Positions 12,166 to 32,311 of a stretch of 64,000 nt of DNA are shown here, piece by piece; positions within the stretch are counted from its first letter, which is position 1; each line of letters opens with the position of its first letter. The stretch comes from Escherichia phage Ptacy1496. The stretch is taken from sequence record PQ863253.1; one strand, written 5' to 3'. The position numbers and the translations under genes were made by a program. Below the pieces are notes generated by a model. That model did no database searches. It worked only from the letters and a program-made list of their open reading frames with translations, and was not told the origin of the DNA.

Positions 12166-13584
12166 TTATGGATAGGTATAGATGATACCAGTTTCTAAAG
12201 CAGTTTTATGAATGATGTATCCATTACGCGATTCTTGAACATCAACTTCTGGATAGTCTTTCATCATCTTCTGAAGAGTGTAACGATGTAGGTAATATTT
12301 ACTATCTGGGTCGTCAGTTTTCCAATCTTTACCTTCTTCGGTCATTTTTTGGATTTCATCCATAACCCACCAACCGCACCAGATATAAGCTGAAGTACGA
12401 TGTGGAAGAGGATGAACATAAGGTAGTTCACCTTCTGGTTCTGGAGCAACTTTATCAGTTACCTGAACTTGACCTTCTGCTGTAATAGTTTTGCTATCGT
12501 AATCAGTTGCAGTAACGACAGCAGTAACTTCAATAGTTTGACTTCCAACAGATGAGGTATCGACAGTATATACGTTAGTTGACCCTTCTACAGGAGAAGA
12601 ATCTTTCTTCCATGAGTAAGTAATTTGTGCTTCTTCTGGAGCACCCGTAACATTAGCCGTAAATGTAGCCGGAGCATCTTGCTGAACATTAATAGAAGGA
12701 GGAGTCAATGTAACCTGTGGATTCATTGTCTTCTTATTAACTGTCAATGATACTTCATTAGAAGTAACTTCCTTTTCATTGTAATTTTCAGCAGTTACTT
12801 GGGCTACGCATTTAATTCTTTTTACTCCACTTGTAGTTGGAGTATAGCTAAATGTAGAGTTAGTTTCTCCACCAACTTGTGAATCATCTACATACCACTG
12901 ATACGTAGCAGACGCTCCATCAGGTTGAGAAGCTAAGGCAGCAGTAAATTGAACTGGGGTTCCGATTACTCCCGCTGGAGGACTATCAGGAGTTACTGCC
13001 AAAGTAGTTGTCTGCGTCTTTTTATTAACAGTCAGTGACACTTCATTGGAAGTAACTTCCTTTGTATCATAATCTGTCGCGGTTACTTGAGCTACGCACT
13101 TAATTGTTTTAACTCCGCTTGCGTCAGGAGTGTAATTGAATGTAGTGCTAGTTGCTTCGCCCACAGGAGAACCGTCAACGTACCATTGATACGTAGCGTT
13201 TGCACCTGATGGCTGTGAAGCTAAGGCAGCGGTAAATTCAATTGGAGTTCCAATCACTCCAGCATCAGGGCTACCAGGAGTTACTGCCAAAGTAGTTGTT
13301 TGTGTCTTATTTTGAACTGTGATAGTTGTACTAATTTCAGCTGTTTCAGGTTCAGATTCTGCAACTTGATTGGTTGCAACTACTTTAATAGTCTTTTGAC
13401 CGGCAGGTCCTTTTAGTACATAACTAAAAGTTGCTGACGTTTCTTCCTGTGGAGCGTCGTCTACAGTCCAAGCATATGTAATAGTTCCGCCTCCAGTTTC
13501 ACCACTGGGTGTAGCAGTAAACTGCTTAGTTTCATCAATAACCCCTGTCGGTGTTTTAGGAGTTATATCAACTGTAAAAGTCAT
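12166..13584 (-). CDS. hoc: Highly immunogenic outer capsid protein Hoc with an additional Ig-like domain
   Basis: 472 aa versus 376 aa in T4; two consecutive ~96 aa Ig-like domains (aa 93-188 and 189-284) are clear paralogs; conserved C-terminal capsid-binding region. Confidence 0.9.
   Translation of the reverse strand: MTFTVDITPKTPTGVIDETKQFTATPSGETGGGTITYAWTVDDAPQEETSATFSYVLKGPAGQKTIKVVATNQVAESEPETAEISTTITVQNKTQTTTLAVTPGSPDAGVIGTPIEFTAALASQPSGANATYQWYVDGSPVGEATSTTFNYTPDASGVKTIKCVAQVTATDYDTKEVTSNEVSLTVNKKTQTTTLAVTPDSPPAGVIGTPVQFTAALASQPDGASATYQWYVDDSQVGGETNSTFSYTPTTSGVKRIKCVAQVTAENYNEKEVTSNEVSLTVNKKTMNPQVTLTPPSINVQQDAPATFTANVTGAPEEAQITYSWKKDSSPVEGSTNVYTVDTSSVGSQTIEVTAVVTATDYDSKTITAEGQVQVTDKVAPEPEGELPYVHPLPHRTSAYIWCGWWVMDEIQKMTEEGKDWKTDDPDSKYYLHRYTLQKMMKDYPEVDVQESRNGYIIHKTALETGIIYTYP
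12733..13308 (-). repeat. Diverged tandem duplication encoding two ~96 aa Ig-like domains within hoc
   Basis: Two adjacent ~288-nt segments show extended nucleotide and protein similarity (KTQTTTLAVTP...EVSLTVNK twice). Confidence 0.8.
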
Positions 13585-24712: not shown

Positions 24713-24742
24713 ACTATAACACAACACGAGGGACTTGTAAAC
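24713..24742 (-). promoter_or_regulatory. T4-type early promoter (GTTTAC -35, TGn-TATAGT -10) upstream of the alt.-3-position ORF
   Basis: Minus strand reads GTTTAC-17/18 nt-TATAGT; part of a 53-bp block duplicated at 39948-40000. Confidence 0.7.
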
Positions 24743-26799
24743 TACATCTTGAACTTTTTAGACATTCCGTTGATGTTAACCAAAGAAGCTAAGATTTGAG
24801 AAACTTCGTTTTCCTCTTCTTTTGATTCTTCTACAAGGAATTGATTAAATCCAGCCATTGGACGAACTTCACCAGTTTCCATTAGATGGTCGCCATCATA
24901 TACTGATTCTTCTAATTGTTCAGAAGGAGGAACGATTGTACCTTCGATTAGATACTTGTTATAAGCAGTTTCTTTCATAAAGTAAGTACTTACTTTATTA
25001 ATCTTCAGTAAAATTCCACGTGGTAGAATAACTTCAGCTTCTGACGGAAATCCTGATAAATGACCCGGAACGATAACTTTGATTCGCTCAGCTCCTTTAA
25101 TTACCATACCCACGCTAGTTTCAGCATCTTCATTAGCATATGTAGAATGACTACCCATATGCATCAAATCTTCTGCATCAACGGAACCTTCTCCTTCACC
25201 AGAAAATACTGCGCCGGAATCATCTAGAGCCATATAGTTTTTACCATGCTCACCGAAGATATTTGGTTTAAGCGATGTGGATACGAAGTTCTTGAAATAG
25301 AACATTTTATTTTCAATGTTATGACGCAAAGTTTTAAAGGTAACTTCTTGTCCACGGTAAAGTGTAGTTCCTGGAGGAAGAACTGAACCTTTAGCGAATG
25401 CAGAATCAAGCGTCTCAATATGTTTAATAGCTCGTTCCATATATTCTTCACGGGTAGAATCTGGTTTACCCAAAAGGAACGAGTTCATTTCAACATATGA
25501 ATCTGCACAATAATCTTCAATTACATCAGATTCAGCTTGAGTTAATCCTTTTGGAGTTACTTCAGTGCTTGCGTATTCATATGCCTGAGCAGCAGATTCA
25601 TTAATCAATTTATAAATGCCATTCATGACAAATTGAATAATAGCTGTCTTTTCATCTGGCGTAGCTTTAGAACCTTTAACCAAATCATTGATAATTTTCT
25701 TAATAACATCAAAGCTATTAGAAATATTAATATCAGCAAGATCGCTTAAAATTTTATCAGTCTTATAATCAAAGAATTCTTTATTCTTTAAATATTCTTG
25801 AGAACCTTGATATGTTATATCGCTCTGTAACTTGATAAATGGATCACGTAAACGTGCATGGGCTAATGCAATATGATTTCGGAAGCTTTCGAGTTCATAA
25901 TCACTAGATTTAAAACGAGAAGCGCTTCTCATACCGCCTATAGCTCCTTTGCTGAAGTTTGAACCAATTTGAATAACGCCAGAGTTCATTGGTCCTTCTG
26001 CTTTATACACCGGAACTTTAGATTCAAACTCTTGATATTTCTTAGCAGCGAAGCTATCACCCTGAAGTGAAGCATCAACAGTAGAATATTGAGCTTGTGC
26101 TGCTAATCGACGACTAATTTTAGTTTTCTGAATAACAGCTTGGTCCGTGCGCTTATCATTTTCTAAAGCAATAGAAGCAGCAACAGCGACAGCTTTAGGA
26201 ACAGCATTTCCTGTTTTAACGTCTACATAAACATCACCGACCTTTGATTCAACTTTTGTGAATAACTCAGTTGAAATAGGAGGTACACCTGGAATGTCTT
26301 CTAAATTGGCATTTTTACGATAAACCATAATATATGCGTACTTTTTATCATAATCCCAGATTTCCTTTAAAAGAACATATCGACCTGCTCCTTTAGTACG
26401 TACTAAACGGTCAGCAATAACTTGCATTTGACGAGCAGCGCCATTTGTTTTACTCTTTAGTACGCGGAATAAGCATGCATCAATTTTATACTGTTTCATT
26501 GTTTGAAGAGCAGTATCAAAAACAGCGTTAATGACGCCAATTGGATTTCCACCCAAGTTTCTAAGTTTAACCAGTGATAATTTCTCGTTGACACCTATCA
26601 TTACGATATGCATCATTTTATCGCCCGGCTTAACGTTTTTATTTGTATCACCTCCAGAGGTGTATGTACAAAATCTAAATCCAGGAAGCACGCTTTCTTC
26701 GCCGGCTTGAATAGCAAAAATTTGAGGTATTTTATGCTTAGGATTTAAGTTAACAACCGGCGCCGAAGCGCCGTCAAATAATTCTGTAATAAGTTCCAT
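24742..26799 (-). CDS. Alt-like ADP-ribosyltransferase paralog (intact, 685 aa)
   Basis: N-terminal ~230 aa closely related to Alt (MELITELFD...); ART signature R (TLYRGQ), STS (FVSTSL), ExE (EAEVILPRG). Confidence 0.85.
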   Translation of the reverse strand: MELITELFDGASAPVVNLNPKHKIPQIFAIQAGEESVLPGFRFCTYTSGGDTNKNVKPGDKMMHIVMIGVNEKLSLVKLRNLGGNPIGVINAVFDTALQTMKQYKIDACLFRVLKSKTNGAARQMQVIADRLVRTKGAGRYVLLKEIWDYDKKYAYIMVYRKNANLEDIPGVPPISTELFTKVESKVGDVYVDVKTGNAVPKAVAVAASIALENDKRTDQAVIQKTKISRRLAAQAQYSTVDASLQGDSFAAKKYQEFESKVPVYKAEGPMNSGVIQIGSNFSKGAIGGMRSASRFKSSDYELESFRNHIALAHARLRDPFIKLQSDITYQGSQEYLKNKEFFDYKTDKILSDLADINISNSFDVIKKIINDLVKGSKATPDEKTAIIQFVMNGIYKLINESAAQAYEYASTEVTPKGLTQAESDVIEDYCADSYVEMNSFLLGKPDSTREEYMERAIKHIETLDSAFAKGSVLPPGTTLYRGQEVTFKTLRHNIENKMFYFKNFVSTSLKPNIFGEHGKNYMALDDSGAVFSGEGEGSVDAEDLMHMGSHSTYANEDAETSVGMVIKGAERIKVIVPGHLSGFPSEAEVILPRGILLKINKVSTYFMKETAYNKYLIEGTIVPPSEQLEESVYDGDHLMETGEVRPMAGFNQFLVEESKEEENEVSQILASLVNINGMSKKFKM

Positions 26800-26802
26800 G
26801 AT

Positions 26803-28851
26803 TTATCCTTGAACGAACTTGTAAGGCATGTTTGTAATATCTATGCAAGACGCAATAATTCCAAGAGATGATTCTACTTTCTGTTTAACATTTGATGAAA
26901 CAAATGATGCAAAGTCAACTCTATCTTCTATATCACCTGTCATTGTAACTACTTCGCCGGTTTCCATTAAACGGTCACCGTCATAAATTACTGATTCGGT
27001 GAGTTCTTCGGTGGTCATAACTTCAGCTTGAATAAGCTTGTTGTTAGTTTTGACTGTTCCATCATTGTAAGATGCATCAGTTATTTTATTAACTTTGACC
27101 ATTAATCCACGTGGCAAAATGACTTCCATTTCATTTGAAGGCGCTAAACTTCCACCGGGTAAAACAACATTGACTTTATCAGCCCCAGTAATAACCCATC
27201 CAATTCCGACTAAATTATCGCTAGAATTAACAAGCCCTTCATCATTTTTATCGATAGAAATGTTTAGACGCTTTTCATCTGGTAAAACACCAACAGCTGA
27301 ATCAGTCATCCAAGTACCAAAAATGTTTGGATATAATGATGTTGATACAAAATTTCTAAAATAAAAAACTCGATTTTTTACCATTGCTTCGTATATTGAA
27401 GGTAACATTCGTTGTGAACGATACAAAGTAATACCTTTTGGTAATCGTTCACCATTTTTAAAGGCTGAATCTAAATTATCAATAGCTTTTTCTATGTCAG
27501 ATGCTGTCAAAATACTTGTACGCTCATCTGGATTATATAATCCCAAAAGAGCATTATTTATGTCTACATATCCTGAACCTACGTATTCACGAATTCCGCG
27601 TTTTTGTGCTGGTGTGTATTTAGATGAATCTTTATTTTCGACTATAGGATGTAATGACCATCCAGCTGTAAGAGCATATCCACGTAATTCTCTTCGAATA
27701 ATCTTTGTTTTTATTGCATTCCAAGAATTTTGTACTAACTCATTTGCAGCATCTTGGTTTAAATGCGAATGTTTGTTAATATTTCTTTCAAACCAAGCAC
27801 CTTTATATTTTTCTAAAGTATCATCGACGATAGAAGCAATAGTTTCTAAAGTTTTTATTGAAGTAATAGATTCTTTTCGTAATTTTTCTAAAGCTTTATT
27901 TTTTATTTCTGCATTAATAATGGATTCTTTATCTTCAGGAATTATAGAAGCTTCTCTGAATGCCATCCCAGCTGTAACATTGCTAAGAGCATTCTCTAGT
28001 GCAAATCCTGAAGTAGAAATTACCGTTAATTCATTAGAATCAGAAATTAAAGGCGCATCAGCGGGTTTATTTAATTCTGCTGCTGAAGCCTCAAATTTTT
28101 GAAACATCGGTGTTTCAAATCTAGAAGATTCCAATGACTGACTTTGTGCAATTGCTCTACGGGAAATTTTAACTTTAACGATTACAGCTTGGTCAGAACG
28201 TTTATCATTTTCTTGTGCAATAGATGCTGCAATTGCCTCATTTTTGGTTACTTGAGCTCCGGTATCTTTATTGATATAAACATCACCGACCTTCGATTCA
28301 ACTTTAGTAAAGAGCTCGGTACTAATTTCCGGAACTCCTGGAATGTCTTCTAGTGATACATTTTTGCGATGTATAAGAATATATGCATACTTTTTATCAT
28401 AATCCCAGAGTTCCTTAAGAAGGACGTATCTGCCACCTGAACGACTACGGATAAGTCTATCAGCAATAACTTGAATTTGTCGAGCTTGACCAGCGGTTTT
28501 AGACTTAAGAATACGAAGCATACAAGCATCAATTTTATACTGACGCATTGTTTGCATTGCAACAGTAAAAACTGAATTGATATAATTAATTGGGCTTGGA
28601 CCAAGACCTTTTAATTTAGCAATTGAACCTTTAGCGGTTAATGTAAAAGGAACAATATGCATCATTTTATCGCCCATTTTTAAATCGCGATTAGTATCAC
28701 CTCCAGATGTATAGGTACATAAACGAAAGCCTGGTTGTTCAATTGCATCATCAACATGAACTGAAAAAATTTGCGGTATTTTCTTCTTTGGATTTAAGTT
28801 TGTAATCGGAAGAGTAGTATCTTCGTCAAATAATTCTGTAATAAGTTCCAT
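26803..28851 (-). CDS. alt: Alt ADP-ribosyltransferase (packaged, modifies host RNA polymerase)
   Basis: 682 aa from second Met, T4 Alt length; R (TLYRSQ), STS, ExE (EMEVILPRG); late promoter on minus strand upstream. Confidence 0.92.
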   Translation of the reverse strand: MELITELFDEDTTLPITNLNPKKKIPQIFSVHVDDAIEQPGFRLCTYTSGGDTNRDLKMGDKMMHIVPFTLTAKGSIAKLKGLGPSPINYINSVFTVAMQTMRQYKIDACMLRILKSKTAGQARQIQVIADRLIRSRSGGRYVLLKELWDYDKKYAYILIHRKNVSLEDIPGVPEISTELFTKVESKVGDVYINKDTGAQVTKNEAIAASIAQENDKRSDQAVIVKVKISRRAIAQSQSLESSRFETPMFQKFEASAAELNKPADAPLISDSNELTVISTSGFALENALSNVTAGMAFREASIIPEDKESIINAEIKNKALEKLRKESITSIKTLETIASIVDDTLEKYKGAWFERNINKHSHLNQDAANELVQNSWNAIKTKIIRRELRGYALTAGWSLHPIVENKDSSKYTPAQKRGIREYVGSGYVDINNALLGLYNPDERTSILTASDIEKAIDNLDSAFKNGERLPKGITLYRSQRMLPSIYEAMVKNRVFYFRNFVSTSLYPNIFGTWMTDSAVGVLPDEKRLNISIDKNDEGLVNSSDNLVGIGWVITGADKVNVVLPGGSLAPSNEMEVILPRGLMVKVNKITDASYNDGTVKTNNKLIQAEVMTTEELTESVIYDGDRLMETGEVVTMTGDIEDRVDFASFVSSNVKQKVESSLGIIASCIDITNMPYKFVQG

Positions 28852-28874
28852 CATAGCCTCTCTAGTGTTTATTC

Positions 28875-28882: not shown

Positions 28883-28887
28883 AAATT

Positions 28888-28905
28888 AAAGGCCCGAAGG
28901 CCTTT
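28888..28905. terminator. Hairpin between gene 30 cluster and alt
   Basis: AAAGGCC-CGAA-GGCCTTT. Confidence 0.5.
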
Positions 28906-29092
28906 AGTAATCTAGTGGTAAGAGAGTACGATATATTTCAAACTTTGGTCCTTTTTCATAGGCATCAAATGTTTCTGTAAATTTATTATAAGCGTATGCA
29001 TCTACAAATTCGAGAATGACTTGTGATACAGAAGTAGAAACATCTCCACCTTCTTTTTGAGCAATGACAATTGTTTCTAAGTAAGCTTTCAT
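28904..29092 (-). CDS. Hypothetical small protein
   Basis: 62 aa ORF between gene 30 and alt, 4-nt overlap with gene 30 stop. Confidence 0.6.
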   Translation of the reverse strand: MKAYLETIVIAQKEGGDVSTSVSQVILEFVDAYAYNKFTETFDAYEKGPKFEIYRTLLPLDY

Positions 29093-30552: not shown

Positions 30553-30818
30553 TGTTCATCCTTTAGAGTTTGGTTTACAGCTCTATTATAAATCAATTCA
30601 TCATTAAGCTCAGTCAAAGACCTGTGGTACGTGGTTCTAACTTTATTTCCTTGCATCCAGTGCTTGACATAAATGAAACCTTGCTCTACACATTTTTTAA
30701 AAATTCGTTCGTCTTTTTGAGCTCGGAATTCTGGATTGCATCTAAAAAATTGATTTACGTGACCGTAATCACGTGTAGTATTACCTTCATTTTCATAAAT
30801 AGTATGAACAACAAACAT
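30549..30818 (-). CDS. Hypothetical protein (30.1-type)
   Basis: 89 aa ORF, overlapping stops/starts with neighbours. Confidence 0.7.
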   Translation of the reverse strand: MFVVHTIYENEGNTTRDYGHVNQFFRCNPEFRAQKDERIFKKCVEQGFIYVKHWMQGNKVRTTYHRSLTELNDELIYNRAVNQTLKDEQ

Positions 30819-31657
30819 TAGAATGCTCCTTGGAAAATATTATCACCACTAGTAGGTCTATTATACAAATACTCTATGCCACCAGGTTTAATATAGTTCC
30901 ATGTCTGAAACGGATGTGTCTGATATGGATGATATAGATGATTATAAGGATTAAATCCAGGAGTTCTCCAGGTAGTGTTCCAAGGAAAAGAATCGTTTTT
31001 GATCATCTTCTCAATTACATCTTTTATAGCTTTTTCACTATCAAAACTTTCTTTATTTTCCTTTGGTGAAAAAAGCTTATTTTCTACATCATTCCATGTA
31101 TAAACTCGCTGTGCAGTTTTTGGAATATTGTCACGCTCTCCTCGAGCCATCCAATAAACAGGAACATTTAATATTTCACTCGCGTGATCGCAGTGGTGAG
31201 CGAGATCGTCAATATAACAAATTACGTTATATTTCTCTTTTGCCTTTTTGAACAACTCTTCTTTTGAAGAATCATGACCACACATCAATACTTCTGAGAA
31301 GGCACCAGGAAAAAGAGCATTCAAATTAAATTGACGATTCAGCAGAGCGTCAATAGAATCACCCAATGCTGTAACAGCTACAAAATTATAATCTTCTTTT
31401 AATTTGTTAATTACACACAGGGCATCTTTATATGGAGACAAGTAACGAATAAAATCTGAACGATTGTATTTTTCAATTAACTTGACGCCAAGTTCTTCAT
31501 CACAATTAAAGAGTTTACCAGGAGAAATAAATTTCTCATCTTGGATCATTTTTAAAATATGTTCTAACGGAAGATTATATTTCTGAGCAAAATAAGGAAG
31601 GCCTGATTGCCAGCTTAAACATACTCCATCAATATCAGTTAAAATAGTAGGCTTCAT
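30818..31657 (-). CDS. HAD-superfamily phosphatase / nucleotidase-like protein with aromatic Pro-rich C-terminal tail
   Basis: 279 aa; N-terminal HAD motif I ILTDIDGV. Confidence 0.7.
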   Translation of the reverse strand: MKPTILTDIDGVCLSWQSGLPYFAQKYNLPLEHILKMIQDEKFISPGKLFNCDEELGVKLIEKYNRSDFIRYLSPYKDALCVINKLKEDYNFVAVTALGDSIDALLNRQFNLNALFPGAFSEVLMCGHDSSKEELFKKAKEKYNVICYIDDLAHHCDHASEILNVPVYWMARGERDNIPKTAQRVYTWNDVENKLFSPKENKESFDSEKAIKDVIEKMIKNDSFPWNTTWRTPGFNPYNHLYHPYQTHPFQTWNYIKPGGIEYLYNRPTSGDNIFQGAF

Positions 31658-32118
31658 AGAGAGTCTCTTAATAGGTTTAACACATCAATAAATTCAGCTT
31701 CGGTTAATATTGTATCATCTTTTGTTAGACCACTAGCCATGCTGTGCTTCAAAACTTTTCCTTTCGAGGCGTGTAATGCATCACGAAAGCCCTTGTTTTG
31801 GATCGCTGCTTCAAAATATGCATTTGTGTATAATTCTTTCCATGCTGGGGAGTATCTTGAAAACGGAACTCCAAGCCAGAAGAGGGTCCCACGGTCCTGA
31901 GCTCTAGCATAAGACCTTCCAGCTTGTTGGGCGGCAAGCCCGGATAACCCAAATATACGACGTTGTTGTTCAGCATTTTTCACCTTGCATCCTTGGAGGA
32001 ATCCTTCAAGACCTCCGAATTGAATACCATCCATGACGAAAGGCCATTGGGCGAAATTACTTAATGCACACGATGGCCATCTAAAATTGCTTCTAATCTC
32101 TAACTCAGACATTTTCAA
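31654..32118 (-). CDS. NADAR (YbiA/DUF1768)-like putative N-glycosidase / ADP-ribosyl hydrolase
   Basis: 154 aa; segment LSNFAQWPFVMDGIQFGGLEGFLQGCKV resembles the YbiA core FSNFAAWPIKVDGKTWPTSEHYFQAQKF. Confidence 0.6.
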   Translation of the reverse strand: MKMSELEIRSNFRWPSCALSNFAQWPFVMDGIQFGGLEGFLQGCKVKNAEQQRRIFGLSGLAAQQAGRSYARAQDRGTLFWLGVPFSRYSPAWKELYTNAYFEAAIQNKGFRDALHASKGKVLKHSMASGLTKDDTILTEAEFIDVLNLLRDSL

Positions 32119-32311
32119 TACTTATAATTTCAACATCAGCCCAATGACCATAGCAAGGAAGACGAAATTCAACTGGCCAGTTAGGGTCCTTTTCTAATAT
32201 AATAGACTTAACTTGTGGTTCTTCATGTTCATCAGTATATGGATTTTTATCTGTTACTTTATATGTGACCTTAATGTACTGAATTCCAAAAATCTTATTA
32301 ATTATATTCAT
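32105..32311 (-). CDS. Hypothetical protein
   Basis: 68 aa ORF in 30.x cluster. Confidence 0.6.
   Translation of the reverse strand: MNIINKIFGIQYIKVTYKVTDKNPYTDEHEEPQVKSIILEKDPNWPVEFRLPCYGHWADVEIISIENV

Follow-up and report, generated by a model that had tools for sequence, protein, structure and literature searches.

Within a 64,000-nucleotide stretch of Escherichia phage Ptacy1496 (PQ863253.1), which as a whole is referred to below as the window, a small gene on the minus strand lies close to genes for ADP-ribosyltransferases. The preliminary description saw in its product a core resembling YbiA and other NADAR proteins, and offered two roles for it: a counter-defence against DarTG, or an eraser of ADP-ribose marks made by the phage itself, in which case the neighbouring alt genes would supply the writer. 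The locus therefore raises the question of what this enzyme acts on, and of how much its neighbourhood reveals about its role. The evidence presented here makes it very probable that the gene is the ortholog of T4 gene 30.3, now adfN, and that it encodes a minimal single-domain NADAR ADP-ribosylglycohydrolase that counters DarTG1.

The list of open reading frames confirms a minus-strand frame at 31654..32118, the first possible start of which is a TTG at 32118. The gene had been described as spanning this whole interval and encoding 154 residues; the reading frame is real, but the likely start is further in. The annotations of T4 and of the near-identical phage G4498 both place the start at the ATG two codons 3' of the TTG (32112 in the window), and for this reason the product most likely has 152 residues and not 154. 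With this ATG, moreover, E36 and K43 carry the same numbers as in published work, and the upstream in-frame TTG is probably not used. The gene and its immediate neighbours are as follows.

31654..32112, minus strand: adfN (T4 gene 30.3), coding sequence of 152 codons plus a stop at 31654..31656.
32105..32311, minus strand: gene 30.4, the upstream neighbour, with a TGA stop at 32105..32107.
30818..31657, minus strand: gene 30.2, the downstream neighbour, encoding 279 amino acids.

The stop codon of 30.4 lies 5 nt within adfN, giving an overlap of 8 nt that suggests translational coupling of the two genes, and the ATG of 30.2 overlaps the adfN stop codon by 4 nt. Given these overlapping ends and starts, 30.4, adfN and 30.2 are tightly packed on one strand. 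The window is a segment of a Tequatrovirus (T4-like) genome: the 12-kb stretch around adfN is 99% identical to Escherichia phage vB_EcoM_G4498, and the gene order, pseT-cd-31-rIII-30.9...30.4-30.3-30.2-30.1-30-alt.1-alt, is that of both T4 (NC_000866) and G4498. A scan of the region for promoters was uninformative on expression, since 23 sigma-70-like sites were found where 23.0 are expected in shuffled sequence. As in T4, a 75-codon frame, 30.3', lies inside adfN in another reading frame (31749..31976, minus strand), and the T4 annotation describes it as ‘internal translation in a different reading frame’. Its ATG is changed to ATC in phages Bp7 and MN01, and WFL6982 has an internal stop; 30.3' is thus poorly conserved and, judged by these alleles, seems not to have been kept as a coding sequence.

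The adfN product aligns with T4 gp30.3 over the full 152 residues without gaps, and 149 of these are identical (98%). The two proteins differ by A47V, H114Q and M125I (window residue first), all conservative and all outside the catalytic positions, with M125 two residues from the catalytic-site histidine H123. High identity combined with the same place between 30.4 and 30.2 identifies the gene as the ortholog of T4 30.3. The product matches PF08010, Phage_30_3, over the entire model (1-138 of 138), with E 1.7e-69 and 232 bits where the cut-off is 36, and in PHROGs it falls in phrog_652, which carries the function label unknown. Related genes are widespread. Matching DNA was found by megablast in 655 phage records, and by tblastn homologues of gp30.3 were found in 1,510 of 50,697 phage records, with hosts that include Escherichia, Klebsiella, Aeromonas, Acinetobacter, Vibrio, Rhizobium and Ralstonia. 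In databases gp30.3 is often represented by truncated or fused entries of 83-126 aa with high identity (P0007, P0013, P0016, P0017, P0060); the number of such entries suggests that frameshifted or decayed alleles like that of phage RB69 are not rare in T4-like phages.

The relationship to NADAR proteins appears at the level of the family rather than that of the single sequence. A Pfam scan of the adfN product returned only PF08010, even when E values up to 10 were allowed, and left the NADAR model PF08719 unmatched; the NCBIfam scan gave no match. In a single-sequence phmmer search of the PDB, YbiA appeared at a non-significant E of 1.3, and 8bau and 8bat were absent from the sequence-search results against the PDB both with the single sequence and with the family profile. 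The preliminary description had proposed a Pfam NADAR search as the check on its reading, and taken literally the single-sequence outcome speaks against that reading; family-level and structural evidence overturns it. With an alignment of 60 diverse full-length gp30.3 homologues, the family profile found YbiA in the PDB at E 0.0099, and when the family was compared by hhalign with YbiA of E. coli K-12 (PF08719), the probability was 93.6% at E 2.1e-7. Individually, 21 of the 60 members match PF08719, the best at E 1.5e-7. YbiA is also among the closest solved structures in a fold search with the adfN model, which has the alpha-helical core flanked by small beta-hairpins that typifies NADAR folds. 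The missing direct match reflects the division of these proteins in Pfam, where PF08010 and PF08719 are modelled separately. Profile links within the family, the result of the fold search and the conservation of the catalytic residues make it correct to call the adfN product a NADAR-fold enzyme, much as first described; it belongs to the Phage_30_3/AdfN family and, more broadly, to the NADAR superfamily. Nevertheless it stands well apart from YbiA (2b3w), the founding member of NADAR/DUF1768 (PF08719): identity is about 20%, YbiA has E125 where gp30.3 has H123, and YbiA is encoded by a chromosomal gene beside dinG and ybiB, unlike the phage-borne adfN.

The conserved catalytic residues anticipated for a NADAR enzyme are present, as is the C-terminal helix.

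32005..32007, minus strand: codon GAA for E36, the catalytic glutamate, which contacts the distal ribose.
31984..31986, minus strand: codon AAG for K43, the phosphate-coordinating lysine.
31744..31746, minus strand: codon CAC for H123, the phage-NADAR histidine in the last beta-strand.
31657..31701, minus strand: C-terminal alpha-helix, residues 138-152, intact in the window.

E36 is invariant in the 60 family members and aligns with the glutamate of the YbiA motif TSEHYFQAQK, and K43 is at least 90% conserved in the same alignment. The two are spaced as in published Glu-Lys pairs, which lie seven apart (E43/K50 in PnNADAR, E88/K95 in EcC7 NADAR). H123, likewise invariant in the family alignment, lies inside a predicted strand at residues 120-123, and an ungapped extension of the hhalign match would place it opposite E125 of YbiA (KLVEH). 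At the equivalent position YbiA-type NADARs have Glu, DarG1-type NADARs have Asp and phage NADARs have His (PMC12945103). In the AF2 model the C-terminal helix occupies residues 138-151 with high pLDDT. The window gene and T4 gp30.3 thus share their genomic position, E36, K43, H123 and the C-terminal helix.

For the T-even proteins, function has been established by others. Gene 30.3 was mapped as the T-even DarTG1 resistance gene and renamed adfN, for anti-DarT factor NADAR (Johannesman et al., Nat Commun 2025; PMC11825919). T4 and T2 from which adfN has been deleted form no plaques on DarTG1 hosts, and RB69, which has a naturally frameshifted allele without the last 15 residues, regains the ability to form plaques when adfN is supplied ectopically. 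E36A, K43A and truncation of the C-terminus each weaken T4 AdfN. The protein does not bind DarT1; instead, purified AdfN strips ADP-ribose from DarT1-modified DNA, and it gives no protection against DarTG2, a thymidine modifier (all PMC11825919). In vitro, T4 gp30.3 hydrolyses guanosine-ADPr and not thymidine-ADPr (Cihlova et al., Toxins 2024; PMC11125620), and a 2026 study found that it leaves cytidine-ADPr intact and that the phage NADAR is the bare core domain (PMC12945103). In the HIDEN-SEQ transposon screen, insertions in T4 30.3/adfN were lost specifically on the DarTG1 host (bioRxiv 10.1101/2025.11.20.689424). These published experiments settle that AdfN of T4 and T2 is both necessary and sufficient for DarTG1 resistance. 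The fold, the catalytic residues, the in vitro activity and the role against DarTG1 were accordingly already known, from work published in 2023-2025, for a protein 98% identical to that of the window, and the checks put forward in the preliminary description are ones that published work has already carried out. Its suggestion of an anti-DarTG counter-defence holds for DarTG1 and guanine-ADPr, by way of experiments on the 98%-identical T4 protein, and fails for DarTG2.

Could the window carry a decayed or inactive allele, as RB69 does, leaving the phage sensitive to DarTG1? The natural frameshift in RB69 (PMC11825919) and the truncated or frameshifted gp30.3 variants common in databases, such as the 109-, 107- and 91-aa entries P0007, P0016 and P0017, give this idea some precedent. 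In the window, however, the frame runs uninterrupted through 152 codons and aligns with T4 without gaps, none of the invariant residues is missing, and the C-terminal helix, the portion lost in the RB69 frameshift allele, is intact and predicted with high confidence. The same nucleotide sequence of adfN is moreover found in at least seven deposited phage records. We therefore give decay of this allele almost no credence. Since all relevant features including the C-terminal helix are kept, we assign the window allele the function of T4 AdfN, and from the 98% identity we infer with high confidence that its three substitutions leave the activity the same. The intact allele predicts that the source phage plates on E. 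coli carrying DarTG1.

In an infected DarTG1 host, the toxin DarT1 would ADP-ribosylate guanine in phage DNA and so block replication. AdfN, expressed from a block of non-structural genes flanked by 31 and 30, would then cleave the N-glycosidic bond between guanine and ADP-ribose by means of E36, K43 and H123, and with unmodified DNA restored, replication of the phage could proceed. The protein would in effect be an orphan, phage-borne copy of the antitoxin activity of DarG1 that operates without binding the toxin.

DarG1 itself is the NADAR antitoxin of DarTG1, known from E. coli C7 and Geobacter lovleyi (8bat) (Schuller et al., Mol Cell 2023; PMC11543638). The window adfN is expected to work like this antitoxin, but it has no adjacent DarT1 gene: among the ten flanking products scanned there was no DarT-type match, and its neighbours are 30.4 and 30.2. 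AdfN consists of the core domain only, with 152 residues compared with 219 for the 8bat chain, and it has His where DarG1 has a catalytic Asp. The N-terminal extension of DarG1, reported to form an electropositive DNA channel, is absent from AdfN (PMC12945103). Unlike the DarG1 antitoxin, T4 AdfN does not rescue uninfected E. coli from DarT1 (PMC11825919, PMC11125620). Other phage proteins protect against DarTG in comparable or different ways. AdfN-Bas32 from a T5-like phage and AdfN-Bas60 from the Vequintavirinae are also NADARs that are specific for guanine-ADPr and act as DarTG counter-defences, but they belong to other branches of the NADAR tree and, unlike T4 AdfN, are active in uninfected cells too (PMC11825919). 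AdfA (T4 61.2) is an anti-DarT factor of another kind, of which the RB69 R164H variant associates with DarT1 (PMC11825919), and AdfM (T4 tk.4) is a macrodomain protein directed against DarTG2 (bioRxiv 10.1101/2025.11.20.689424). The RefSeq record of T4 and all close Tequatrovirus records among those listed label adfN ‘hypothetical protein’; the annotation that these records could carry is adfN, DNA ADP-ribosylglycohydrolase, anti-DarTG1 factor.

The kinship with YbiA brings in a different kind of substrate. YbiA is an N-glycosidase of riboflavin intermediates, and by analogy the main substrate of the window enzyme could be a low-molecular-weight nucleotide derivative and not DNA; phage NADARs acting on soluble immune signals derived from ADP-ribose have likewise been proposed. 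YbiA is, as noted, among the closest solved structures, a distant homologue has a NUDIX gene about 3 kb away, phage NADARs were predicted by Iyer et al. (2022) to act on soluble ADPr derivatives (PMC9503650), and the T4 enzyme is weak outside T-even infection (PMC11825919). Against this, the purified T4 protein takes ADP-ribose directly off DNA, the phenotype is specific to DarTG1, and the family carries His where YbiA-type enzymes have the Glu that defines their subfamily. A small molecule as the main substrate is consequently very unlikely, and removal of ADP-ribose from guanine in DNA remains the reading that we prefer. The distant homologue just mentioned, P0044, is encoded on a jumbo-phage-like contig of about 300 kb, with NUDIX hydrolase and Thg1-like genes about 3 kb away (L004 11115..11879 and 12308..13294, both minus strand). 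In Acinetobacter phage ZZ1 a NUDIX gene lies about 2.3 kb upstream of 30.3 (L011 3177..3710).

We then considered the proximity of adfN to the alt genes, for which the relevant features are listed below.

26803..28854, minus strand: alt, encoding the Alt ADP-ribosyltransferase, the nearest ‘writer’; 98% identical to T4 Alt, PF03496 at E 3e-36.
24742..26799, minus strand: second full-length alt paralogue; 42% identical to T4 Alt, PF03496 at E 6e-20.
28887..28906, minus strand: terminator-like hairpin between alt.1 and alt, GGCCTTCGGGCC core followed by a T-rich tail.

Both copies match PF03496, so that the mention of alt genes in the plural was accurate, and the nearest alt is 2.8 kb from adfN. 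Of the second copy T4 has, at this position, no more than the short remnants alt.-1 and alt.-2, and the window phage retains an intact tandem duplicate. Alt modifies arginine in proteins. If adfN and alt formed a writer and eraser pair, AdfN would take off ADP-ribose attached by transferases of the phage itself (Alt, its paralogue, ModA and ModB) and would tune or recycle phage-made modification of host proteins or RNA. Two alt-type transferase genes lie 2.8-7 kb from adfN on the same strand, the 30.3-30.2-30-alt block recurs in Acinetobacter phage ZZ1, and T4-like phages have their NADARs among the early genes, together with ADP-ribosyltransferases, as Iyer et al. (2022) noted (PMC9503650). 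On closer inspection the arrangement is weak evidence for such a pair. Four genes (30.2, 30.1, DNA ligase and alt.1) and the terminator-like hairpin just upstream of alt, which matches in position the annotated terminator of G4498, separate adfN from alt, and ZZ1 carries its alt genes on the other strand. RB43 has 30.3, 30.2 and 30 but no alt nearby; in phiR1-RT the 30.3 homologue lies elsewhere, among tRNA genes, without the alt linkage; and in two metagenomic lineages, represented by contigs as long as about 300 kb and 82 kb, no ADP-ribosyltransferase was found within 8 kb of the homologue. Linkage to alt, present in T4-like phages and ZZ1 and absent from these four, was therefore rejected as a sign of a functional pair. 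The proximity of adfN and alt is T4-like backbone synteny.

The chemistry points in the same direction. Alt targets arginine in proteins, and the T4 enzyme has been shown to act on base-linked ADP-ribose on guanine in nucleic acid and to leave T-ADPr and C-ADPr untouched (PMC11125620, PMC12945103); the cited literature on the T4 enzyme contains no report of an assay on arginine-linked protein ADPr. DarTG1 in addition fully explains the phenotype of the adfN deletion (PMC11825919; bioRxiv 10.1101/2025.11.20.689424). It is thus highly improbable that AdfN erases marks made by the phage's own transferases, and neither the eraser role nor the pairing with alt put forward at the outset is upheld; the role that we favour is that against DarTG1.

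The T4 enzyme nevertheless does not neutralise DarT1 in uninfected E. coli (PMC11825919, PMC11125620), rescues phages other than the T-evens only poorly, and shows full activity only in T-even infection (PMC11825919). For these reasons the simple picture of a free-standing eraser is incomplete. Since T4 AdfN is a bare NADAR core that works fully only in T-even infection, it may be asked whether T-even AdfN requires a phage-encoded partner, for example the product of 30.2, or, in a weaker variant, whether the duplicated Alt makes a second substrate for it. We consider this very unlikely. T4, Bp7, MN01, WFL6982 and Acinetobacter phage ZZ1 keep 30.2 next to 30.3; RB43, phiR1-RT and the metagenomic relatives examined have lost the adjacency, and owing to this loss the support for 30.2 as the partner is thin. 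Whether a 30.2-like gene follows distant homologues was tested in the metagenomic contig L004 and no such gene was found there, the protein downstream of the gp30.3 homologue having no similarity to gp30.2; the neighbours of the homologues in L004 and L007 have no PHROG assignment.

The product of 30.2 had no match in Pfam or among PDB sequences, and in PHROGs it falls in phrog_420, with function label unknown. It carries an N-terminal DIDGV motif reminiscent of HAD phosphatases; given the lack of Pfam and PDB matches, its HAD-like appearance is a motif-level impression only. The label HAD-like hydrolase occurs in one phage record, on a feature under the adfN match that is probably 30.2.
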